Assembly (NCBI GenBank): GCA_965116315.1
Contig: OZ220672.1
Location: forward strand, 579,208-643,207
Source: Dehalococcoidia bacterium
Lineage (GTDB): Bacteria > Chloroflexota > Dehalococcoidia > Lucifugimonadales > CAJWER01
Reading direction: 5' to 3'
Length of the DNA: 64,000 nt
A program made the position numbers and the translations under genes. Positions 15,882-28,893 of the stretch are shown here, in pieces (within the stretch, counting starts at the first letter, position 1; every line of letters begins with the position of its first letter). A model generated the notes under the pieces. It made no database searches, had not been told where the DNA came from, and saw only the letters and a program-made list of their open reading frames with translations.

Positions 15882-15882
<1 letters not shown>

Positions 15883-16892
15883 TACTCTGGGTAGACCGCC
15901 CCGCTCTCACCTTCGAATACCGGCCCAGCGTCGAACCCTGACAGTGCCTCAGCGCTTCCGCCCAAGGACTCGACCATGACCTCGACGTTGGTGAGCATCA
16001 GGCCCATGTAGGAGTGGCGGGGGTCGCCGTGGGACCCGGGCAGGTCGTCATCCCTGAGCTGGTCGATGAACACCGCGCCGCCCTCCTTGGCAATCTGCTC
16101 CATCACGGGGCTGGGGAAGACCTCAGAGCCGAATATGGCGGGGACGCCCGACTCCCTCACCTGGTCGATGAGCCCTGCCACGTCGCGGGCTGACGGCTCG
16201 GTGAAATCCGAAGGCTGGACGGCGCCCACGATCTCCAGCCCGTAACGGGGCCCGAAGTAGGGGAACGAGTCGTGGTATGTAAGCAGCTTCCGGTTCGCGG
16301 GCGGGATGGTGCCCACCGCCTCCGAGATTCGCCTGTCGAGGTCTTCGAGGCGAACCTTCAGCTTCTCGTAGTTCTCGCTGTAGTAGTCCGCATTGCCGGC
16401 GTCCAGCTTTGCGAGCTCGTCCCGTATGAGCTCGGCGTACTTCATTGCCAGCACGGGGCTGGTCCACAGGTGCGGATTGGGATGCCCGCCGTCCTCCGGG
16501 AATGAGAAATCGAACACCCACTCGTCGCGGGAGATGGCGCGGTCGGCCAGGGCGAGGATGACGGCGCCGGGCTTCTTGTTGGCCTCCGCCATCTCCAGCG
16601 ACGGCTCCTCGAGGAACAGGCCGTTCAGCACGATCAGGTCTGCCTCCGACAGTACCTGGGCCACCGACGGGGCCGGCTCGAACGTGTGGGAGTTCGTGCC
16701 CTCGGGAACGATGCCCTCCAGGCGGATCCTGGTGCCGCCCACGTTCTCGGCCAGGCTGGTGATGGGCGACACGGTCGTGACAACCCTGAGCGCACCGGAG
16801 TCTGCGGTTTGCGTGTCACCGTCGCCCTGGCCTCCGCAGGCCGTCGCCGCAAGGGCAGCGACGGTGAGGGACAAGCAAATGACAGCCCGCAT
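15882..16892 (-). CDS. Metal ABC transporter substrate-binding lipoprotein (ZnuA/TroA family)
   Basis: Start set at ATG 16892 (MRAVICLSLTVAALAATACGG, lipobox). TroA-like body, in an operon with the ATPase and permease. Confidence 0.85.
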
Positions 16893-16918
16893 CGCGGGAG
16901 GCCATGCGCGTATCAGCA

Positions 16919-17338
16919 TCAACGGCAGCACTTGCACACTCCGAATATTGCGAAATGGTCTATGTCGGCCTGGAAGCCGTGGTCCTCGAGCAGCTTTGCG
17001 CCCAGCTCCGCCAGGTTGCCGTCGTCCAGCAGGATGACCCTGTCGCAGCTTCGGCATATGAGGTGGTGGTGCCGCTCGCGCTCCACCCACTCGTACATCG
17101 ACTCGCCCACGCCCATGTCCGTCTCGGACACGAGCCTCATGTCCTTCAGCACCGCCAGCGTGCGGTAGACCGTGGACGCGTCTATGTAGGGGTAGGAGGT
17201 CTTGACCCTGTCGAGTATCTGCGCGGCGGTGACGTGCTCGCCGGCGTGGCGGACCTCCGAGAGGATCATGAGGCGCTGGGGAGTGGGGCGGTGGCCCGAC
17301 TCCTTGAGGGCTTGTACGGTCTTGATCTCGCAGCTCAT
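16919..17338 (-). CDS. Fur family transcriptional regulator (Zur-like)
   Basis: MSCEIKTVQALKESGHRPTPQRLMIL...HHHLICRSCDRV...CKCC (two CxxC pairs). Start at ATG 17338 downstream of a consensus promoter. Confidence 0.85.
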   Translation of the reverse strand: MSCEIKTVQALKESGHRPTPQRLMILSEVRHAGEHVTAAQILDRVKTSYPYIDASTVYRTLAVLKDMRLVSETDMGVGESMYEWVERERHHHLICRSCDRVILLDDGNLAELGAKLLEDHGFQADIDHFAIFGVCKCCR

Positions 17339-17368
17339 GGGGTTACCTTGAAGCTCTGTGGACGAGCA

Positions 17369-17397
17369 ATCATACGGAAACAGCGTGTTAGTGTCAA
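17369..17397 (-). promoter_or_regulatory. Sigma70-like promoter of the Fur-family/metal uptake operon
   Basis: Minus strand reads TTGACA (17397-17392), a 17-nt spacer, then TATGAT (17374-17369). AAGGT Shine-Dalgarno lies before ATG 17338. Confidence 0.5.
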
Positions 17398-17470
17398 ATG
17401 CAAGTATTTGCAAGAAATGATAGATGCGGCCTGCTGGGCGGATTGCCGGCGGAGGGAGGGCGGGTTTCAA

Positions 17471-19174
17471 GAGCCTGTTTCAGTAGGTGGGATTGGCTAT
17501 TGAGACCTGTGGGTATGTTGTCACGCTTGTGGGATGCAAGGCCTGGGGCGCAGCAGGAGTTCGAATGCGCGGGTGATAATCACCTGGACCACGAGATATG
17601 CCGGTGCTGTGGTGTTGACAGCGGCTCGCAAGCCACGGTTTGCCTGGAGTGCGGGGCCCCACCCACCAATCCGATCTATCGTGGCTCGCCACATCCGCCA
17701 GAGGGTGCGCAGGTTGAAGGCGGTGGCGAGCAGGGTCCACTCGGCAACGACGTTCGCTTTCCCTCGCAGCAGGAATCGCCGCCCTCCCTGCTGCTCCTTG
17801 ATGATCCCGAAGACCGGCTCGACTATGTACTTTCTCTGGCTGTAGGCCTCAATGGCTTCGTCAGTGGACATCCAATCCCGATGGCGACGCAACAGTGTCT
17901 CGTGCGGCCCGACCTCAAGTGCTCGCCCGTGTCGCCCGTCCTTCGTACAGACCCCGAAGGCCGGGCAGGCCCGGCAGACGGTCCCGGAGGCGCGGTACAG
18001 ACGCATCGGCACTCCTCGAGTCCGCTTCAATCTGGCGAATCGAAGCCGATGGCCTTGCGGGCAGTCATATGTGTCGCCCGTCTCGTCGTAGATGAAGCGG
18101 TCCTTGTGGTAGGGGCTCGACAGGGCCCGGTTCTGTGACTCGGGCATCGCCACGAGCTGCTCGCGGCGGGCACACTCCTCAAGCGCGCTCCCAGAATGGT
18201 ATCCGGCGTCGGCCAGCGTCATCTCCGCCTTATGTCCAGTCGTCTCCTCGGCCTTGTCCATCATTGGACACAACTGAGACGCGTCGTTCGGCTCATCCAC
18301 CACGTCGACCGCCGTGATCAGCATACCGGACTGGCCGTCGCCATCCTCCACAGGCGAGACCACCGCCTGTGCGTTGTAGGCCGGCATGATGCCTTGACGC
18401 GTCTTGATGAACCGCGCATCCTTATCGGTCAGGTTGAGACCCTTGCCGCCATCCTCGTCCGAAAGCTCGGTCAACGCCTCACGCAATTGGTCCCTCAGGG
18501 CCTTGCGGTCTCTCAACGCGTCTGGCAACTGGGCTGACGCCGACTCTTCCCCTGCCTCGTTCTGCGCCTCCAACTCGTCTATCTCCCGCTCCAACCGGCC
18601 CAACAACCGGCCCAGCCCGTCGGCATCGTATGTCCGGTCTGCCGCCGCATCCGCACCCACCTTCGTCCCATCCACTGCCTGTACAGCCAACTTGACCAGG
18701 TCCATCTTCACCGCAGTGCGCACCGTCCGCTCCAACAGCTTGCGCATCCCCTCCCTATGCATACTGTAGAACCGCCACAGCGTCACGTGATCCGGCTGCT
18801 GGCAGCCCGTCAGCCACATGTAGGGAATCTGCTCCCGGCAGGCCAACTCCAACTTCCGGCTCGAACGCACTCCCATCATGAAGCCGTAAACCCACACGCT
18901 CAACATCGCGCGTGGATGGTAGGCTGGCGCTCCCTGCTGGTTCCCATCTACGTCGATTCCAAGTTCAGACCACTCGTCAGGGCTGAGCGCATCCACGAAC
19001 TCGGCTACGAACCGAGCTGCATGGCCTGGCGGCAGCCATTCATCAGGACTCGGCGGCAACATCCATATCTGCTCACGGCTCATCGGTCGATGCGGCATCT
19101 CTGTTCACCCAAGAGCATGACAAACCTGACCTTCTCCCTGACAATACCCCATCTCAGACTAATGAAACAGGCTC
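17471..19174 (-). mobile_element. IS1182-family insertion sequence (1704 bp)
   Basis: Terminal inverted repeats GAGCCTGTTTCAGTAG (17471-17486) and reverse complement GAGCCTGTTTCATTAG (19174-19159), 15/16 identical. Flanked by a direct TCAA duplication (17467-17470 and 19175-19178). Single transposase ORF. Confidence 0.8.
17521..19098 (-). CDS. IS1182 family DDE transposase
   Basis: 525 aa. The N-terminus MSREQIWMLPPSPDEWLPPGHAARFV...YHPRAMLSVWVYGF...SSRKLE and the DAGYHSG segment are typical of IS1182/IS5-like transposases. Confidence 0.9.
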   Translation of the reverse strand: MPHRPMSREQIWMLPPSPDEWLPPGHAARFVAEFVDALSPDEWSELGIDVDGNQQGAPAYHPRAMLSVWVYGFMMGVRSSRKLELACREQIPYMWLTGCQQPDHVTLWRFYSMHREGMRKLLERTVRTAVKMDLVKLAVQAVDGTKVGADAAADRTYDADGLGRLLGRLEREIDELEAQNEAGEESASAQLPDALRDRKALRDQLREALTELSDEDGGKGLNLTDKDARFIKTRQGIMPAYNAQAVVSPVEDGDGQSGMLITAVDVVDEPNDASQLCPMMDKAEETTGHKAEMTLADAGYHSGSALEECARREQLVAMPESQNRALSSPYHKDRFIYDETGDTYDCPQGHRLRFARLKRTRGVPMRLYRASGTVCRACPAFGVCTKDGRHGRALEVGPHETLLRRHRDWMSTDEAIEAYSQRKYIVEPVFGIIKEQQGGRRFLLRGKANVVAEWTLLATAFNLRTLWRMWRATIDRIGGWGPALQANRGLRAAVNTTAPAYLVVQVIITRAFELLLRPRPCIPQA

Positions 19175-19357
19175 TCAAACCCGCCCCTACGAACGAGATT
19201 AGTCCGACGTGGCGGGTGGTATGGGCAAGGTTAGCGAGGAGGTCCCGGCGTGGCGGGCGTGCGGGCCAACGCTGGTATTCGGCCACCCGGATATAGTTTC
19301 AGGGGGCGCTAGGAAGTGGGGAATGAGGGGTCGGGACTCAGGAGGTTGGACGCCGGG

Positions 19358-19747
19358 CTACGTGCTTATGAGAACCCCATTCGCGCGCAACCCGGCCGAG
19401 TGGGCGATGCCGTTGACCGCCGCGGTGAACAGGTCCCACTCGCTGCGCAGGCAGACGAGCCGTTCCCTGCCCAGGGGGGTAATGTGGTAGTAGCGGCGGC
19501 TCTGGCCGGACTTCGCCTCTTCCCACTCACCCTCTACGAGCCCGTCGCGCTCGAGCCTGTGAAGGGCGGGGTAGAGGGTGCCCTCCTTGAGCTGGAAGTA
19601 CCCGTCGCTTCGCCGGTCGATCTCCTTGACGAGCATGTAGCCGTACATCGACTCATCGGACAGGAGCGACAGGATCAGCGTCTCGGTGCTCCCCTTAAGC
19701 AGCTCTCGCCTGTATGACTGGAGGACGGTTTCCCGGTGAGTGCACAT
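19358..19747 (-). CDS. PadR family transcriptional regulator
   Basis: LLKGSTETLILSLLSDESMYGYMLVKEI...LKEGTLYPALHRLERDGLVEGEWE...RRYYHITPLG. ORF open to 19777; the ATG at 19747 is preferred. Confidence 0.85.
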   Translation of the reverse strand: MCTHRETVLQSYRRELLKGSTETLILSLLSDESMYGYMLVKEIDRRSDGYFQLKEGTLYPALHRLERDGLVEGEWEEAKSGQSRRYYHITPLGRERLVCLRSEWDLFTAAVNGIAHSAGLRANGVLIST

Positions 19748-19875
19748 CTCCCCGTTTCCTGCAGCGGATAACCCCAATTACGAAGGCTGGCACTTGGTCG
19801 GATTCATAAACATGGGTCAATCGCCCCCCTCTCGTGTAGAATTACAGGCGGCCCACTTCGCGATCAGGAGCAACT

Positions 19876-21048
19876 TTGAGCGGGAACACGGTCCAGCGGC
19901 TTCCCGGCATGAGGGACATGGCCGGAGTCGAGTACAGCGCGGTCCAGGCAGCCTCGGCCGCCTTCGAGTCCCTTGCGACCGGGCGGGGCTACGACATGCT
20001 GGACACGCCGCTGCTGGAGCAGACGGAGCTGTTCGTGCGCAAGTCCGGGGGGGAGCTGACCACCCAGCTCTACTCGTTCGTCGATCCCGGCGGCAACCGC
20101 GTCAGCCTCAGGCCCGAGTTCACCTCGTCCGTGATCCGGCACTATGCGGAGCAGGGATACTCACCCGGTGAGCCCGTGCGGTGGCAGTACCGCGGGCCGG
20201 TGTTCAGGCACGACGGCGCGTTCCGGCAGTTCACACAGGCGGGAGCGGAGCTCATAGGCTCCGCGGGCGTGGAATCGGACTTCGAGATCGCGAGCCTGGC
20301 CTCCAACGGGCTTGCGGCGATGGGGGTCGAGAGGCACACGCTGCGGGTAGGCCACCTGGGGGTGATTCACGACCTGCTTGACTCGTTCGACCTGTCGGAG
20401 TCGGCCAAGCTCTTCGTCGTCAGCAGGATCAACGACCTCAAGTCGGGCAGCGCCGACTCGGCCGGCCTTGGCGCGGAGGCTCGCAGCCTCGGGCTCGTGC
20501 GAAACGGCTTCGACTCCGACGTGACCAGCGTCCTCGTCTCGCTGGGCCCGGATGCCGCTCGGGAGCTCATCGACGGCATGATGTCCGGCTCGACCGCCAG
20601 CTCCATGGGCCGGCGCACGACCGACGAGGTCGTCGGGCGCCTTCTGCGCAAGGTGAGGACCGCGGACCGGGCTGACAGGCTCGAGGAGGCCCTGCGAGTT
20701 GCCGGCGAGGTGGTGCGCATAGAGGGGGAGCCCTCGGACGCCCTGGCGCGCGCCCGCGCGAATGGCGTCCGGTCGGAGAGGCTGGACCAGGTTGCCGAGC
20801 TCACGGACAGGCTGGCGGGCGACGCCGCGGTCGACAGGCGCGTAGTCGTCGATCTAGGCGTGGCACGAGGGCTCGCCTACTACACGGGCTTCATCTTTGA
20901 CGTCGAGATCGACGGGCCGGATGGCGTGCTCTCCCTCGGCGGCGGCGGCAGGTATGACGGCCTCGTGCGGGCGCTGGGCGGCGATGACACCCCGGCGCTC
21001 GGGTTTGCGTACACCCTCGAGTCCGTCGCCGCGGCGGTTGGGGGGTAA
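19876..21048 (+). CDS. hisZ: ATP phosphoribosyltransferase regulatory subunit (HisRS paralog lacking the anticodon-binding domain)
   Basis: LPGMRD..., TPLLEQTELF, RLYSF-like and LRPEFT motifs, then GGGRYD...LGFAY at the C-terminal end with no anticodon-binding domain. Lies immediately upstream of hisG. AGGAG lies 5 nt before the TTG start. Confidence 0.8.
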   Translation: MSGNTVQRLPGMRDMAGVEYSAVQAASAAFESLATGRGYDMLDTPLLEQTELFVRKSGGELTTQLYSFVDPGGNRVSLRPEFTSSVIRHYAEQGYSPGEPVRWQYRGPVFRHDGAFRQFTQAGAELIGSAGVESDFEIASLASNGLAAMGVERHTLRVGHLGVIHDLLDSFDLSESAKLFVVSRINDLKSGSADSAGLGAEARSLGLVRNGFDSDVTSVLVSLGPDAARELIDGMMSGSTASSMGRRTTDEVVGRLLRKVRTADRADRLEEALRVAGEVVRIEGEPSDALARARANGVRSERLDQVAELTDRLAGDAAVDRRVVVDLGVARGLAYYTGFIFDVEIDGPDGVLSLGGGGRYDGLVRALGGDDTPALGFAYTLESVAAAVGG

Positions 21049-21052
21049 GGGG

Positions 21053-22048
21053 ATGCTCCGGCTCGCGGTTCCCAGCGACGGCGCACTGCACGAACCGTCC
21101 CTCGACTTCCTGGGCGCGTGCGGCCTGGGAATCCGGCGGTCCAGCCTCCGGCGGTACACGGCGGAGGTGCCGGCCCTGCCGGGCGTCGTCGTCCACTTCC
21201 AGAGAGCCGCCGACATCGGGCTCAAGGTGGAGGATGGAAGCTCCGACATGGGGCTGATCGGGCGCGACCGCTTCCTCGAGACGCGGCGGGAGAAGGGCGA
21301 CACGATCGTGGCCGTGGACAATCTCGGCTTCGGGCAGTCCGATCTCGTGATAGGCGTCCCTGACGGCTGGCTGGACGTCTCCTCCATGGCCGATCTCGCG
21401 GAGCTGTCGATGGAGTTCAGGGAGCGTGGCAGGGACCTGCGGATAGCCACGAAGTACCCCAGGCTGGTCGAGACCTTCCTCCTGTCAAGGGGGGTCTCCT
21501 TCTTCTCCCTCGTCGAGTCCAGCGGCACCCTCGAGGCCGCGCCCGCTATGGGCTACGCGGACATCATCGTCGACATCTCGACCACCGGCACCACACTCAG
21601 GGAGAACCGCCTCAAGACTATCGACGGGGGCTCGGTCATGTCATCGGAGGCGTGCCTGATAGCCAACGGCGCGCTGGTGCCCTCGAATCCGGAGACCCTT
21701 GGCCTGGCGACGGCGCTGCTGGAGCGCATCGAGGCCCACATGCTGGCGCAGGACTTCTACAGCGTGACGACCAATATGCAGGGCGAGGAGTCGGAGGACA
21801 TCGCCCGCCGCGTGCTGGAGCACGAGGACATCTCGGGGCTTCGCGGGCCGACCATTTCCAAGGTACACACCCGGGACGGCGAGGGCTGGTACGCCGTGAC
21901 CGTGATCGTCGAGAAGGAGCGCCTGCTGGACGTCGTGGACAAGTTCAGGACGATAGGGGGCAGCTCGGTCACGGTGTCCCAGCCGGGGTACGTGTTCAAG
22001 TCGGAAAGCGCCGCCGCGAAGCGCCTGAGGGCGGCGGGCCGCGTCTGA
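21053..22048 (+). CDS. hisG: ATP phosphoribosyltransferase, long form with C-terminal regulatory domain
   Basis: MLRLAVPSDGALHEPSLDFL..., GYADIIVDISTTGTTLRENRL, and a C-terminal ~90-aa HisG_C-like domain (GPTISKVH...WYAVTVIVEKERLLDVVDKFRTIGGSSVTV). Confidence 0.9.
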   Translation: MLRLAVPSDGALHEPSLDFLGACGLGIRRSSLRRYTAEVPALPGVVVHFQRAADIGLKVEDGSSDMGLIGRDRFLETRREKGDTIVAVDNLGFGQSDLVIGVPDGWLDVSSMADLAELSMEFRERGRDLRIATKYPRLVETFLLSRGVSFFSLVESSGTLEAAPAMGYADIIVDISTTGTTLRENRLKTIDGGSVMSSEACLIANGALVPSNPETLGLATALLERIEAHMLAQDFYSVTTNMQGEESEDIARRVLEHEDISGLRGPTISKVHTRDGEGWYAVTVIVEKERLLDVVDKFRTIGGSSVTVSQPGYVFKSESAAAKRLRAAGRV

Positions 22049-22049
22049 C

Positions 22050-22781
22050 GTGCCCAACCTGCCGGCGCACATAGGTCTCGCCCGCGACGCCGCCGATCGA
22101 ATCGCCAGCCCGGTCATCGTCGGGAACATGGGGTACTTCCTGCTGGGGTCGACCGCGCCGGACATGCGGGCGATCACGAAGCGTACCAGGGAGCACTACC
22201 ACTTCGCGCCGCTCGACTTCGAGCAAGTCGGCGATGGCGTGGGGGCCATGCTGGAGTCCAACCCGCACCTGGCAGGGCTGGACGGCAGGAAGGCCGCTTT
22301 CGTAGCCGGGTATATCTCACATATCGTCCTCGACGAGTGCTGGATTACGGGTGTATTCAGGCCCGCCTTCGTGGGTGCGGGCGCCGCTCCCGATGCCAGG
22401 GGCCTCGTGCTGGACAGGGCGCTACAGCTGGAGCTGGACCGCCGGACGGATGGAGAGGGGGAGTACCTGGGCCTGATGCGGGATGCCTCCTTGCCCCTCG
22501 ACCTGGGCTTCGTGTCCGACGAGGAGGTCGCGGGGTGGCGCAGCTGGGTGGTCGAGTTCCTGGAGCGCGACTTTTCGTGGGAGCGGCTTCGATTCATGGC
22601 CCGACGCATCGCCAGGGGCGACGAAGCCCACGCGGCCCACGCCGTTGCAGATGAGCTGCTGCGCTCGACTCCAGAGAGCCTGGAGGCGATGTTCGAGGTC
22701 GTCTCCCGCGACGAGCTGCGGGAATTCGAACGACGCTCGGTGGACACGCTGTGCGAGCACCTCGAGGGTTACCTGCGATGA
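22050..22781 (+). CDS. Zinc-dependent phospholipase C-like (PLC/P1-nuclease fold) metallohydrolase family protein
   Basis: MPNLPAHIGLA...FLLGSTAPD...GYISHIVLDECW resembles the His/Asp metal-ligand pattern of Zn_dep_PLPC proteins. The GTG start is 1 nt after the hisG stop, and its stop overlaps the hisD ATG (ATGA). Confidence 0.55.
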   Translation: MPNLPAHIGLARDAADRIASPVIVGNMGYFLLGSTAPDMRAITKRTREHYHFAPLDFEQVGDGVGAMLESNPHLAGLDGRKAAFVAGYISHIVLDECWITGVFRPAFVGAGAAPDARGLVLDRALQLELDRRTDGEGEYLGLMRDASLPLDLGFVSDEEVAGWRSWVVEFLERDFSWERLRFMARRIARGDEAHAAHAVADELLRSTPESLEAMFEVVSRDELREFERRSVDTLCEHLEGYLR

Positions 22782-24106
22782 TGATCGTCCACGGGGCGGC
22801 GGAGGCGGCGAGGGTTCTCCGGGACCGTCGCATCAGCCAGCGGGACGACATTCCGGCCGGGGTGCTGGAGACGTCGTCCAAGGCCCTGGGACAGCCTGTG
22901 TCTTCGGTCGACGAGTTCGTACGGCTGGTCCTCGCAAGGGTGCGCGAGGGGGGAGACCGGGCGGTGTGCGACCTGACCGAGAAGCTGGACGGCCGTGACC
23001 CGGGCGAGCTTGAAGTGCCCCGCGCGGCCATCGCGGACGTCTATGAGCAGGTGCCCGTCGAGGTGGTGGAAGCTCTGCGGCTCGCAGCCGACCGCGCGCG
23101 GGAGTTTCACCGCCGGAGTCTCCCTGCGGGGTGGTTCGACGAGGAGAAGGGGTACGGCGAGGTCTTCAATCCCGTGGGCCGGGCGGGAGCGTACGTTCCC
23201 GCGGGCTCGGCGCCGTTACCTTCCACTGCGATCATGACGATCGTGCCGGCCAGGATTGCCGGTGTGACGGAGGTGATCGCGGTCACGCCTCCCGGACCGG
23301 GCGGATCGCCAGACCCGTCGGTGCTGGTGGCCGCCGACATCGCGGGCGTCGACCGCGTATTCGGCATCGGCGGGGCGCAGGCAATCGCCGCCATGGCATA
23401 CGGGACCGAGACGGTGCCGGCCGTCGACATGCTGTGCGGGCCGGGCAACGTCTTCGTCACCGCGGCCAAGAAGATGCTCTTCGGCGAGGTGGGCATAGAC
23501 GGCCTGTATGGGCCCACCGAGACGCTGGTCGTCGCGGACGGGTCGGCCAACCCGACGCTGTGCGCCGCCGATCTCCTGGCCCAGGCCGAGCACGACGTTA
23601 TGGCGACGCCCATTCTCGTCACAACGTCGGCGGACCTTGCCGACGACGTCCGCCGAGAGCTGGAGGTGAGGGCGGGCCGGCTCGAACGCGGGGCCACGGC
23701 GCTTCAGGCGGTCGAAGGCCGGGGCTGCATCGCGGTGGTGGACAGCGTGGAGGAGGCGATAGCGATCGCCAACGACTTTGCGCCCGAGCACGTCTCGCTG
23801 ATGGTCGAGGACGCCCGCGACCACGTGGACAGCATAACGAGCGCGGGGGCCATATTCGCGGGCGAGCTGTCGCACGAGGTGCTGGGGGACTACGTGGCGG
23901 GGCCGAGTCACGTCATGCCGACAGGCGGCACGGCGCGGTTCGGGTCCGGGCTGAACGTGCGGTCGTTCCTGAAGGTCAGCCCTGTCGTCGCGCTCGACGA
24001 CGAACAATCGTTGGAGCTGGGCAGGGCCGCGGCTACAATAGGACGGGCGGAGGGGCTGACGGCCCACGCCGAGGCGGCGGAGATACGCGAGGAGCTTCGG
24101 CCCTGA
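22778..24106 (+). CDS. hisD: Histidinol dehydrogenase
   Basis: Full-length HisD-like sequence (GAYVPAGSAPLPSTAIM, GIGGAQAIAAMAYGT, AEHD, SHVMPTGGTARF). ATG 22778 overlaps the upstream stop. Confidence 0.95.
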   Translation: MMIVHGAAEAARVLRDRRISQRDDIPAGVLETSSKALGQPVSSVDEFVRLVLARVREGGDRAVCDLTEKLDGRDPGELEVPRAAIADVYEQVPVEVVEALRLAADRAREFHRRSLPAGWFDEEKGYGEVFNPVGRAGAYVPAGSAPLPSTAIMTIVPARIAGVTEVIAVTPPGPGGSPDPSVLVAADIAGVDRVFGIGGAQAIAAMAYGTETVPAVDMLCGPGNVFVTAAKKMLFGEVGIDGLYGPTETLVVADGSANPTLCAADLLAQAEHDVMATPILVTTSADLADDVRRELEVRAGRLERGATALQAVEGRGCIAVVDSVEEAIAIANDFAPEHVSLMVEDARDHVDSITSAGAIFAGELSHEVLGDYVAGPSHVMPTGGTARFGSGLNVRSFLKVSPVVALDDEQSLELGRAAATIGRAEGLTAHAEAAEIREELRP

Positions 24107-24119
24107 CGGAGGTACAACA

Positions 24120-25232
24120 GTGAGCAGCACGCAGACGAGGCCGGGCATGGAAGACCTGATTCGCGCCCACCTGCAGGACGTAAAGACGTACGAGCCGGTG
24201 GACCCGCCGGAGGTGCTGGCGCAGAGGGCGGGGATTCCCGCCGACCAGGTCATCAAGCTGAACGGCAACGAGAACCCCTTCGGCAGCGCGCCGGAGGTTG
24301 TGGAGGCCGTCTCGAAGGCGCCGTTCCACGTGTACCCCGACCCGTTCCAGAGGGCCATGCGCGCATCAATCGCCGGCTACACAGGCGTCGACGAGGGTCA
24401 CATAGTCGCGGGCGCGGGCAGCGACGAGCTGATCGACCTGCTGTTCCGGCTGTTCATCTCGCCCGGCGACGCGATCATCGACAGCGATCCCACCTTCGGG
24501 ATGTACGGCTTCTGCGCGAGGATTGCGGGCGCCGAGACGGTGATGGTGCCCCGTACGGACGACTTCGACGTGGACGTCGACGGGGTCGCGAGGGCAGCGC
24601 GGAAGCCCGGCGCCAAGATCATATTCGTGAGCTCGCCGAACAACCCCACGGGGAATGCCGTTTCCGAAGAGCAGGTGAGGGCGCTGCTCGACACGGGCCT
24701 GGTGATCGTCGTCGACGAGGCGTACTTCGAGTTCTCGGGGCTCACCGCCGCCGGACTCGTCCCCGAGTACGAGAACCTGGTCGTGCTGCGGACGATGAGC
24801 AAGTGGGCGGGGCTGGCCGGACTGCGCGTCGGCTACGGGCTAATGAGTCCCCGGCTCGTGCAGCACATCATGGACATCAAGCCGCCGTACAACGTGAACA
24901 TCGCAGCCGAGGCTGCGCTGATTGCGTCGATGGAGAACGCCGGGGGGCTGCTGGAGCGCGTGCGGGTCATCATCGACGAGCGGGAGCGCATGTTCCGGCT
25001 ACTGCAAGAGATCCCTGGGGTATCGCCTTGGCCGTCGTACGGCAACTTCATACTGTGCAGCTTCGCGCCCGGGGTAGCCGGGGCCGTCTACGACGGGCTT
25101 GGCGCCCGCGGCATCTTCGTACGGCGCTTCAGCACGGAGCGCCTCGCCGACACTTTTCGTATAACCGTCGGCAGCCGGGGGGAGACCGACGCTGTGATAG
25201 CCGCTATGAGGGAGCTGGTTCCCGGCACGTAG
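24120..25232 (+). CDS. hisC: Histidinol-phosphate aminotransferase
   Basis: LNGNENPFG, VFVSSPNNPTG-like segment and RTMSKWAGLAGLRVGY (PLP lysine). GGAGG precedes the GTG start. Confidence 0.9.
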   Translation: MSSTQTRPGMEDLIRAHLQDVKTYEPVDPPEVLAQRAGIPADQVIKLNGNENPFGSAPEVVEAVSKAPFHVYPDPFQRAMRASIAGYTGVDEGHIVAGAGSDELIDLLFRLFISPGDAIIDSDPTFGMYGFCARIAGAETVMVPRTDDFDVDVDGVARAARKPGAKIIFVSSPNNPTGNAVSEEQVRALLDTGLVIVVDEAYFEFSGLTAAGLVPEYENLVVLRTMSKWAGLAGLRVGYGLMSPRLVQHIMDIKPPYNVNIAAEAALIASMENAGGLLERVRVIIDERERMFRLLQEIPGVSPWPSYGNFILCSFAPGVAGAVYDGLGARGIFVRRFSTERLADTFRITVGSRGETDAVIAAMRELVPGT

Positions 25233-25479: not shown

Positions 25480-26606
<1,127 letters not shown>

Positions 26607-26635
26607 CTGGGTTCCTGCCTCCGCAGGAACGACGG
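26607..26635. repeat. Hairpin repeat, family E, inverted relative to 25267-25297
   Basis: CTGGGTTCCTGCCTCCGCAGGAACGACGG is the reverse complement of the left copy with one mismatch. Confidence 0.7.
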
Positions 26636-26775
26636 CTATACGCGCAACTCGGCCGCGCACGAGGTTGTGCAAAGGTTCCCTCGGGGGGAAGAGGTCGAGC
26701 CGCCGGCCAGCTTCTCATGGTGCCCTCAGCCGGGCTAGTCGGGTACAATGATGCCCGGTCCCAGCCAGCTCGGAG

Positions 26776-28398
26776 GTGGCAGCCTTGGGCAGTAGCAACG
26801 ACGTAGCCGATGTTGTCGTGATAGGGGCGGGGGCGTCGGGCGGGGCTTTTTCGTGGCGCCTGGCGAGGGCCGGTTTCGACGTAGTGTGCCTGGAGCAGGG
26901 CGGCTGGCCCGACCCCCACGACTACGCGAGCGGCAGGGACGACTGGGAGCTGTCCCGCCTCTCCTACATGAGCCCGGACCCGAACGTGCGCGGCCTGCCG
27001 GAGGACTACCCCGTCAATAACGACGACTCGCCCATCGCGCCGCTGATGCATAACGCGGTCGGCGGCAGCACGATCCACTGGAGCGCCCACTTTCCGCGCT
27101 TCCGGCCCTCGGACTTCAGGGTGAAGTCCCTGGACGGGGTGGCCGACGACTTCCCGATGACCTACGATGACCTGGAGCCGTTCTTCGATGAGAACGACAG
27201 GATCAGCGGCGTCGCAGGATTGACGGGCGACCCCGGCTACCCTGAGAAGTCGGAGCGCCAGACGCGGGCCATCCCACTCGGCAAGCCTGGCGAGACCATA
27301 GCCCGGGGGTTCGACAAGCTGGGGTGGCACTGGTGGCCCTCGGACAGCGCCATCCTCACCGAGGCCTACGACGGGCGCGCGGCCTGCAACAACTGCGGCC
27401 CGTGCGACATCGGCTGCTACCGCAAGGCCAAGGCCAGCACCGACGTCACATACTGGCCCAAGGCCATCGCCGCCGGGGCTGAGCTCAGGACCCGGTGCCG
27501 CGTCAGCGAGATCACCCTGGGCAGCGACGGTCGGGCGGACGGGGTCGTCTACTATGACGAGAGCGGCGCGTTGCAGCGCCAGAAGGGCAGGGCGGTCGTC
27601 GTCGCGTGCAACGGCATCGGCACGCCGAGGCTTCTGCTCAACTCGGAGTCAGGGCGGTTCCCCACTGGGCTTGCCAACAGCAGCGGGCTGGTCGGCAAGA
27701 ACCTCATGTTCCACCCCTACGCCATGGTCTCGGGGGTGTTCGACGAGAGGCTCGACGGCTACAAGGGGCCGATCGGATGCGCCATCCTGAGCCAGGAGTT
27801 CTACGAGACGGACCTGTCGCGCGGCTTCGTGAGGGGCTACACCTTCCAGATCGCCCGCAGCTCGGGTCCGGTCAACACGGCCCTGGGGGGACTTGGCGGC
27901 CACGGCCCGATTCCGTGGGGCACGGAGCATCACGACGTCATGCGGGAGCGGTTCGGCCACACCCTGACCATTGCGGTCATCGGCGAGGACCTGCCGGAGC
28001 ACCACAATGCCGTCACCATCGACGGCGACCTGGCCGACAGCCACGGCATCCCCGCGCCGAAGGTCACTTACACCATGAGCGAGAACAGCACCAGGATGAT
28101 GGACCACGGCATCGAGAAGTCCACCCTCGTTCTGGAAGCGGCCGGCGCGAAGGACGTACTGGTCAATCCACTGCTGCGACCGGCGGGCTGGCACCTGATG
28201 GGAACGGCGAGAATGGGCAACGACCCCGAGACGTCGGTGGTCGACGCGGAGGGCAGGGCGCACGACGTCGACAACCTGTACATCATCGACGGCAGCATCC
28301 TGGTCACTGGCGGGGCGGTCAACCCCACGTCGACCATACAGGCGCTGGCGCTCTACGTAGCCGAGCGGTTCGTGGAGCGCGCCGGCAGCGCGGGGTAG
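26776..28398 (+). CDS. GMC family FAD-dependent oxidoreductase
   Basis: VVVIGAGASGGAFSWRLARAGFDVVCLEQG dinucleotide fold, and the GMC C-terminal H..GT.RMG...VVD..GR.HDV.NLYI.DGS motif. Confidence 0.85.
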   Translation: MAALGSSNDVADVVVIGAGASGGAFSWRLARAGFDVVCLEQGGWPDPHDYASGRDDWELSRLSYMSPDPNVRGLPEDYPVNNDDSPIAPLMHNAVGGSTIHWSAHFPRFRPSDFRVKSLDGVADDFPMTYDDLEPFFDENDRISGVAGLTGDPGYPEKSERQTRAIPLGKPGETIARGFDKLGWHWWPSDSAILTEAYDGRAACNNCGPCDIGCYRKAKASTDVTYWPKAIAAGAELRTRCRVSEITLGSDGRADGVVYYDESGALQRQKGRAVVVACNGIGTPRLLLNSESGRFPTGLANSSGLVGKNLMFHPYAMVSGVFDERLDGYKGPIGCAILSQEFYETDLSRGFVRGYTFQIARSSGPVNTALGGLGGHGPIPWGTEHHDVMRERFGHTLTIAVIGEDLPEHHNAVTIDGDLADSHGIPAPKVTYTMSENSTRMMDHGIEKSTLVLEAAGAKDVLVNPLLRPAGWHLMGTARMGNDPETSVVDAEGRAHDVDNLYIIDGSILVTGGAVNPTSTIQALALYVAERFVERAGSAG

Positions 28399-28422
28399 CA
28401 GCGGACCAGCGAGGAGAGGCGC

Positions 28423-28893
28423 ATGACTGGAGGCGAGACCACTACGTCGCTCACTGAGGAGCAGACTGCCCTGGCGTCGGAGGTGCTGGACCAGTTGATT
28501 CCGGGCCGCGACGACTTCCCAGGAGCGGGCGAGTTGGGGATAGCCCAACACCTGGAGGGCGTAGCCGCGTCCGACCCGGGCCTAGGGCGGCTCTTCCACG
28601 ATGGCCTGGCCGCCATCGAGTCGACGGGCCGAAGCACTTACTCGGCAGCCTTTGGCGATCTTGGCGACGACCAGAAGGTCCAGGTGCTGCTCGCCGTCGA
28701 GGCCGAGAGGTCCCAGGCCTTCGCAATGCTGGTCAGGCATGCGTACGCGGGCTACTATTCGAACCGCAGGGTCATCGAGCTGATGGGCTTGGAGGCGCGC
28801 CCGCCCCAGCCGCTGGGGTTCGACCTGGACCCGTTCGATCCAACGGCGGTGGAGCATATCAAAGAACGAGGCAAGATCTGGCGAGACGTTTAG
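28423..28893 (+). CDS. Gluconate 2-dehydrogenase subunit 3-like small subunit
   Basis: LTEEQTALASEVLDQLIPGRDDFPGAGELGI...YAGYYS pattern. Lies directly downstream of the GMC large subunit. No twin-arginine signal is visible. Confidence 0.65.
   Translation: MTGGETTTSLTEEQTALASEVLDQLIPGRDDFPGAGELGIAQHLEGVAASDPGLGRLFHDGLAAIESTGRSTYSAAFGDLGDDQKVQVLLAVEAERSQAFAMLVRHAYAGYYSNRRVIELMGLEARPPQPLGFDLDPFDPTAVEHIKERGKIWRDV

Follow-up and report, generated by a model that had tools for sequence, protein, structure and literature searches.

A gene of phospholipase C/P1 nuclease fold fixed between hisG and hisD in Dehalococcoidia is a candidate histidinol-phosphate phosphatase

The histidine (his) operon of a Dehalococcoidia bacterium (assembly GCA_965116315.1) lies in a 64,000-nucleotide stretch of contig OZ220672.1 (positions 579,208 to 643,207, forward strand), hereafter the window, and carries a 243-amino-acid (aa) gene, here called X, embedded between hisG and hisD (Table 1). 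The hisG/X boundary reads ...cgc gtc TGA c GTG ccc aac ctg, with the hisG stop at 22046-22048 and the GTG of X at 22050. At its other end, X runs into hisD as ...ctg cgA TGA tga tcg, where the TGA of X (22779-22781) overlaps the hisD ATG (22778-22780), and this 4-nt overlap (ATGA) recurs in relatives. Both junctions, a GTG 1 nt past the hisG stop and a stop codon overlapping the next start, were described in an earlier sequence-only reading of this DNA and are seen in the sequence, as are the length and motifs that it quoted: PAHIGLA, LGSTAPD and GYISHIVLDECW are all present in the translation. The GTG start is supported by the orthologs, because every one of them begins MP(N/S/P)L. A chance open reading frame at 22050-22781 was considered and ruled out by the 304 homologs (close database members of the family), the 724 clusters at 50% identity and the confident fold described below.

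An alignment-based AlphaFold2 model of X is all-helical, with 15 helices, and has a predicted local distance difference test score (pLDDT) of 90.9 and a predicted template modelling score (pTM) of 0.90. In an exhaustive structural comparison (VIA), the closest match is the Bacillus cereus phospholipase C (PLC) 1ah7 (Z 9.2), followed by 1olp (Clostridium absonum alpha-toxin, 7.5), 8qjl (SmNuc1, 7.2), 8cqm (Listeria PlcB, 7.1), 3w52 (a plant bifunctional nuclease, 6.7) and 5fb9 (S1 nuclease, 6.5). These six best matches are all PLCs or S1/P1 nucleases, and the seventh falls to Z 3.6. The phosphoesterase fold assigned to X in the sequence-only reading is therefore borne out by structure prediction and placed in the PLC/P1-nuclease group (Z 6.5-9.2). 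At the sequence level, X scores 26.7 bits against the Pfam model Zn_dep_PLPC (PF00882; cut-off 26.8) over residues 7-96 only, and 26.9 bits in a six-frame search of the genome; most X orthologs carry a precomputed PF00882 match. No NCBIfam model matched X, and a Foldseek search of the model against the PDB gave no match at E <= 0.001. A profile search over the sequences of solved structures returned noise only, without a sequence-level match to any solved PLC, and a structural search of the ESM Atlas returned the X family alone.

Seven residues of X (P2, H7, D38, R47, H51, H91 and D95) are invariant among 14 diverse his-linked orthologs, six lineages that carry HisN and 80 loci from named species. 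The zinc ligands of B. cereus PC-PLC, which we take to be Trp1, His14, Asp55, His69, His118 and Asp122, with H128, H142 and E146 forming a third site, are mirrored in order and spacing by P2, H7, D38, H51, H91 and D95 of X, an equivalence drawn from spacing and the Pfam-aligned region rather than from residue-level superposition. As far as aligned residues can indicate, two of the three PLC zinc sites (1 and 3) are matched in X by invariant ligand-like residues, and the ligand pattern claimed for the protein is conserved. The mature N-terminal proline may itself act as a metal ligand. Beyond D95, the protein holds an invariant D122-R123-x-x-Q126-x-E128 instead of the third zinc site. These residues belong to a helix, DRALQLELDR (residues 122-131), that is specific to the his-linked subfamily, with D122, R123 and Q126 absent from non-his paralogs; for the 80 loci, the search pattern itself accounts in part for the invariance of residues 122-131. 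No signal peptide is found in X: its N-terminus, MPNLPAHIGLARDAADR, has no hydrophobic stretch, and every ortholog starts with MP. Taken with the predicted model, these features suggest that X is probably a cytoplasmic, two-metal phosphoesterase of the Zn-phospholipase C / S1-P1 nuclease fold.

The Zn-dependent PLCs (PC-PLC 1AH7, the clostridial alpha-toxin N-domain 1OLP and Listeria PlcB 8CQM; PF00882) resemble X in their all-helical fold over the full length (Z 9.2, 7.5 and 7.1, respectively), and in the order and spacing of the ligand residues; the Pfam match of X lies at the gathering threshold. They are secreted toxins or lipases with a mature N-terminus made by signal-peptide cleavage, whereas X stands in a his operon, is predicted to be cytoplasmic without such cleavage, has Pro2 in place of Trp1, lacks histidines for the third zinc site, and shares 10-14% identity with them. 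The S1/P1 nucleases (5FB9, 3W52 and SmNuc1 8QJL) share the superfamily fold (Z 6.5-7.2) but are secreted proteins, glycosylated or with disulfide bonds, that hold three zinc ions, and X has no such secretion features and no third site. S1/P1 nucleases are also phosphomonoesterases (3'-nucleotidase), so the fold can hydrolyse a monoester.

The conservation of X was followed through a class sample of 201 genomes of Dehalococcoidia/SAR202, in which relatives are not independent and the assemblies of non-carriers vary in completeness. X is present in 113 of these genomes, and hisD in every one of the 113 carriers. The order hisZ-hisG-X-hisD-hisC-hisB is kept in relatives at 65%, 51% and 49% identity, and the hisG-X-hisD arrangement is also found in five other families at 28-33% identity. 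The end of X lies just upstream of hisD on the same strand in all 40 coordinate pairs compared. Among the best 80 of 157 relatives in a collection of named species, all of them Dehalococcoidia, SAR202 or Chloroflexota metagenome-assembled genomes, X is followed by hisD at 79 loci and preceded by hisG at 78, and the three exceptions are contig ends. In family f87, hisG is not upstream of X, and X is still with hisD. Pairwise identities of X and HisD are correlated (r = 0.94, 77 genomes), and matches outside the class are weak and not his-linked. X is a fixed, co-translated component of the his operon in Dehalococcoidia (hisG-X-hisD), and its linkage, checked across the orthologs, is essentially invariant over deep divergence. 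The distant non-his paralogs lie beside unrelated genes, among them those for a PRK-family kinase, an esterase, ABC transporters, an FMN dehydrogenase and RuvC, and these neighbours give no clue to the chemistry. No fused form of X was returned by a search aimed at longer proteins, which is weak evidence. A separate 355-aa protein (P0191) reads as HisG_C followed in frame by X; it may be a genuine hisG-X fusion or, since hisG and X stand 1 nt apart, the artefact of a 1-nt frameshift.

Histidinol-phosphate phosphatase (HolPase) is the step most often absent from reconstructed amino-acid pathways, and hisN is the largest remaining annotation gap in such pathways, missing in 42 of 208 prototrophs (GapMind 2026, PMC13759103). 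The genome studied here is a single 4.19-Mb contig that contains hisZ/G/D/C/B and hisH/A/F/IE; the hisH-hisA-hisF-hisIE genes are located elsewhere on it, with no adjoining phosphatase. As had been read from the sequence, hisB is monofunctional, with a PF00475 domain only and no HAD phosphatase domain. Across the genome, no match was found to the HisB-N type of HAD phosphatase (TIGR01656), and no HisJ-type PHP protein; the two PHP proteins that stand alone belong to the nucleoside-bisphosphate-phosphatase/RNase RNM and CehA/McbA types. The IMPases of this genome were judged as HisN candidates by the HolPase-specific motif 5 (GD[CF][YW]x[YH]) defined by Kulis-Horn et al. (PMC5516325), together with the TIGR02067 cut-off of 275 bits. 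Motif 5 is absent from both IMPase-family proteins of the genome: IMP1, a SuhB-type protein with GSAAL, reads RIMGSAALGLSY and scores 164.9 bits against the HisN model, and IMP2 reads RITGSTVYEIAM and scores 124.8 bits. The class's own HisN-type alignment likewise returned no HisN-type match in this genome. The lack of known HolPases (HAD, PHP and HisN), claimed earlier from the operon, thus holds for the whole genome. A role for X as a HisE substitute was also considered and ruled out, hisIE being present.

We put the probability that X is the HolPase missing from this pathway at roughly 0.45, and regard some other his-linked role as almost equally probable. The assignment is suggested by the position of X next to hisD, which encodes the enzyme that uses the proposed product, by the phosphatase being the only missing step of the pathway in the genome, and by the co-divergence of X and HisD and their synteny across the class. 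The PLC/P1 phosphoesterase fold is also known to allow monoesterase chemistry. What the analysis shows is the fold, the conservation of ligand-like residues, the linkage within the operon and the lack of known HolPases in the genome; the substrate of X, the identity and number of its metal ions, and each catalytic step below are inferred. In this chemistry, modelled on PLC and on the 3'-nucleotidase activity of P1 nuclease, removal of the initiator Met would allow the Pro2 amine to hold one metal ion together with H7 and D95, and a second metal ion would be held by D38, H51, H91 and D95. A metal-bridged hydroxide would attack the phosphate of L-histidinol phosphate, the product of HisC, with R47 helping phosphate binding, and L-histidinol would be released to HisD, encoded immediately downstream. 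The DRALQLELDR helix, which takes the place of the third PLC zinc site, would bind the substrate at its cationic amino-imidazole moiety. Full-text literature searches found no publication on the X family or tying the PLC/P1 fold to histidine synthesis.

Several observations weigh against this assignment. The third PLC zinc site (H128, H142 and E146) has no histidine counterparts in X, and no histidine is conserved past D95. The SuhB-type IMPase of the genome, IMP1, could act promiscuously as a stand-in. The distribution of X does not complement that of the known HolPases. Motif-5 HisN-type and SuhB-type proteins of the class split cleanly (at least 225 versus at most 195 bits), and motif-5 HisN occurs in 31 of the 113 X carriers versus 8 of the 77 non-carriers with hisD. 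The carriers with HisN belong to families f13 (10/10), f87 (9/9), f100 (9), f11 (2) and f117 (1). In seven of the nine f100 genomes, HisN comes immediately behind hisB, on the strand of X and 3.2-6.5 kb downstream of it. Every invariant residue of X is kept in the lineages that have HisN, and its divergence there is not higher. HisJ-like PHP proteins occur in 13 genomes, 11 of them X carriers and two without hisD in the assembly. Non-carriers, among them those of f2, f92 genus g200, f75 and the small-genome lineages, lack X but keep the his operon intact, and most show no recognisable phosphatase. The related operons of f92 genus g200 and f2 keep hisZ-G-D-C-B intact, and no remnant of X is found in the 330-bp hisG-hisD gap of one X-less genome (G389). 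From such operons it follows that X can be lost with no recognisable replacement, and that unrecognised phosphatases exist in the class anyway. About 60% of non-carriers with hisD have no known phosphatase either, so the missing step alone is no pointer to X. HAD (TIGR01656) matches fall on both sides (19 carriers and 22 non-carriers). There is no phyletic complementarity between X and the HAD, PHP and HisN types.

For a large minority of the carriers, these counts run against the expectation that X carriers would be free of PHP, HisN and HAD phosphatases. The sequence-only candidacy of X as the phosphatase stands in part: fold, ligands, coupling, linkage and the gap in the genome agree with it, and complementarity with the known enzymes does not. 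HisB-N (HAD), HisJ/HisK (PHP) and HisN (IMPase) resemble X in their his operon position and in having a metal-dependent phosphoesterase fold, but X is homologous to none of the three and, co-occurring with HisN-type or HisJ-like genes in 42 of the 113 carriers, does not replace them. The objection from co-occurrence is softened by the report that HisN-like IMPases found beside another HolPase can be phosphoserine phosphatases (PMC13759103, section 8). No ser or his gene adjoins the HisN-type genes of f87, f11, f13 and f70, and the genes downstream of the in-operon HisN of f100 are unrelated. Canonical SerB (TIGR00338) falls below cut-off in this genome (G000) and in four relatives that carry HisN (G416, G344, G455 and G437), the best score being about 30 bits. 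SerB looks like a second phosphatase gap in the group; because it is below cut-off in all five genomes, it does not discriminate whether the co-occurring HisN-like proteins are SerB. Two further features were seen among these HisN-type genes. In one f100 genome, a DUF6941 gene (L070:10100-10501) lies between hisB and the in-operon HisN-type gene, and the HisN-type gene of an X-less relative (G451:C1:811340-812140) has one in-frame TAG inside the match, from either a pseudogene or a sequencing error.

Since both X and HisN are stably kept across whole families, the two can be argued to be non-redundant. This bears on a possible, though less probable, alternative in which X is a phosphoesterase dedicated to histidine biosynthesis that performs an accessory reaction other than the HolPase step. 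Such a reaction could hydrolyse a phosphorylated or pyrophosphorylated side-product or dead-end intermediate, or remove pyrophosphate or nucleotide to pull the HisG reaction, and dephosphorylation of histidinol phosphate would fall to HisN where present, and elsewhere to another or a promiscuous phosphatase. An accessory reaction agrees with the presence of intact X alongside motif-5 HisN in 31 of the 113 carriers, within one operon in f100, and with the phosphodiester cleavage typical of PLC/P1-fold enzymes. Non-carriers with complete his operons mostly have no known HolPase, so the class has further phosphatases regardless. However, no further pathway step is missing here, hisIE being present, and no known his intermediate is a phosphodiester. 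In addition, 44% of the sampled class genomes have no X, so the reaction is not universally required, and the redundancy argument is undone if the HisN-like IMPases are SerB, as they can be (PMC13759103). A narrower form, in which X is neither redundant with HisN nor its replacement and carries out an unrecognised histidine-biosynthesis reaction (repair, pull or side-product hydrolysis) coupled to HisD, seems to us somewhat less probable; it would account for the retention of intact X together with a motif-bearing HisN throughout whole families, in one of them within the same operon.

It is improbable that X is a non-enzyme partner of HisD or HisG, made in a fixed ratio with them and perhaps having a zinc-handling or regulatory role, in which the old PLC site would bind a metal or histidine/histidinol. 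X always adjoins hisD with translational coupling, staying there even in f87, and HisD is a zinc enzyme. A ZnuA gene near the operon, both here and in one relative, also fits such a partner, as would the database protein that reads as a HisG_C-X fusion. The full catalytic-type ligand set and the arginine nevertheless stay unchanged across deep divergence, as is more typical of enzymes, the ZnuA adjacency is confined to close relatives, and the fusion is a single cluster and possibly an artefact. A complex prediction for HisD with X scored 0.00, which counts neither for nor against pairing. Least probable is an ordinary phospholipase C or nuclease that stands in the his operon by chance. Pointing that way are the borderline Zn_dep_PLPC match, the name 'zinc dependent phospholipase C family protein' given at the source, and the structural resemblance to PLCs and S1/P1 nucleases, but X has no signal peptide or hydrophobic N-terminus, misses the third zinc site, and is only about 10-14% identical to solved enzymes, with no sequence-level match to any solved PLC. 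Moreover, its hisD linkage is invariant in about 190 genomes, and the D122/R123/Q126 helix of the subfamily is absent from non-his paralogs.

If X is the HolPase, it would be a fourth, structurally unrelated family of this phosphatase, built on the PLC/P1 fold. A gap would be closed for Dehalococcoidia including SAR202, a large class that is ecologically abundant and mostly uncultured, and a toxin/nuclease fold would have been recruited into core metabolism. If X instead acts otherwise while HisN is present, one of the best-studied pathways would contain an unrecognised accessory reaction.

Table 1. Genes in and around the his operon of the window, and tandem double hisG genes of X-less relatives (positions in their own loci).
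Feature	Position	Strand	Evidence
Gene X, 243 aa, probable cytoplasmic metallohydrolase of PLC/P1-nuclease fold, candidate HolPase	22050..22781	+	translation, PF00882 score, AlphaFold2 model, structural matches, invariant residues
PadR-family regulator, divergent from hisZ	19358..19777	-	PF03551
hisZ, HisRS-like regulatory subunit	19876..21048	+	PF13393; TIGR00443 and NF008953 match below curated cut-offs
hisG, long form with HisG_C domain	21053..22048	+	PF01634 + PF08029, TIGR00070 + TIGR03455
hisD	22778..24106	+	PF00815 476 bits, TIGR00069 466 bits
hisC, histidinol-phosphate aminotransferase, maker of the proposed substrate	24120..25232	+	TIGR01141 319.8 bits, above cut-off
Insertion between hisC and hisB: IS110 transposase, GMC oxidoreductase, gluconate-2-dehydrogenase subunit-3-like gene	25626..28893	+	domain matches
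hisB, imidazoleglycerol-phosphate (IGP) dehydratase only, 199 aa	29141..29740	+	PF00475 only; NF002111 above cut-off
Tandem double hisG	L045:7485-8900	-	
Tandem double hisG	L046:5120-6520		
Tandem double hisG	L056:4684-6087		
Tandem double hisG	L059:5163-6599		
Tandem double hisG	L060:7430-8857	-	
Tandem double hisG	L061:7578-9014	-	
Tandem double hisG	L052:3218-4849		

The remaining genes of the locus are summarised in Table 1. The operon layout given by the sequence-only reading is kept in the placement of X between hisG and hisD, and needs amending at hisB: between it and hisC stand an IS110 transposase, a GMC oxidoreductase and a subunit-3-like gene. In the 65%-identity relative L027, the GMC/Gluconate_2-dh3 pair is found at the same position without IS110, and this shared position indicates that the pair is an older insertion. 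The start of hisG is inferred at MLRLAVPSDG, residue 53 of the listed open reading frame. HisZ has as its textbook partner a short HisG; at this locus, hisZ stands beside a long-form hisG with its own HisG_C regulatory domain (19876-22048), and the pairing is repeated in relatives. A different arrangement is seen in small-genome Dehalococcoidia without X, where hisD is directly preceded by a 466-543-aa hisG with two HisG-domain matches (tandem double HisG). Genes for ZnuA (zinc/manganese uptake), a DDE transposase and the PadR regulator lie upstream of the his operon in divergent orientation (15882-19777). PadR is also found upstream of hisZ in relatives: a znuABC-padR block is upstream in L027, and DegV-padR takes its place in more distant relatives.
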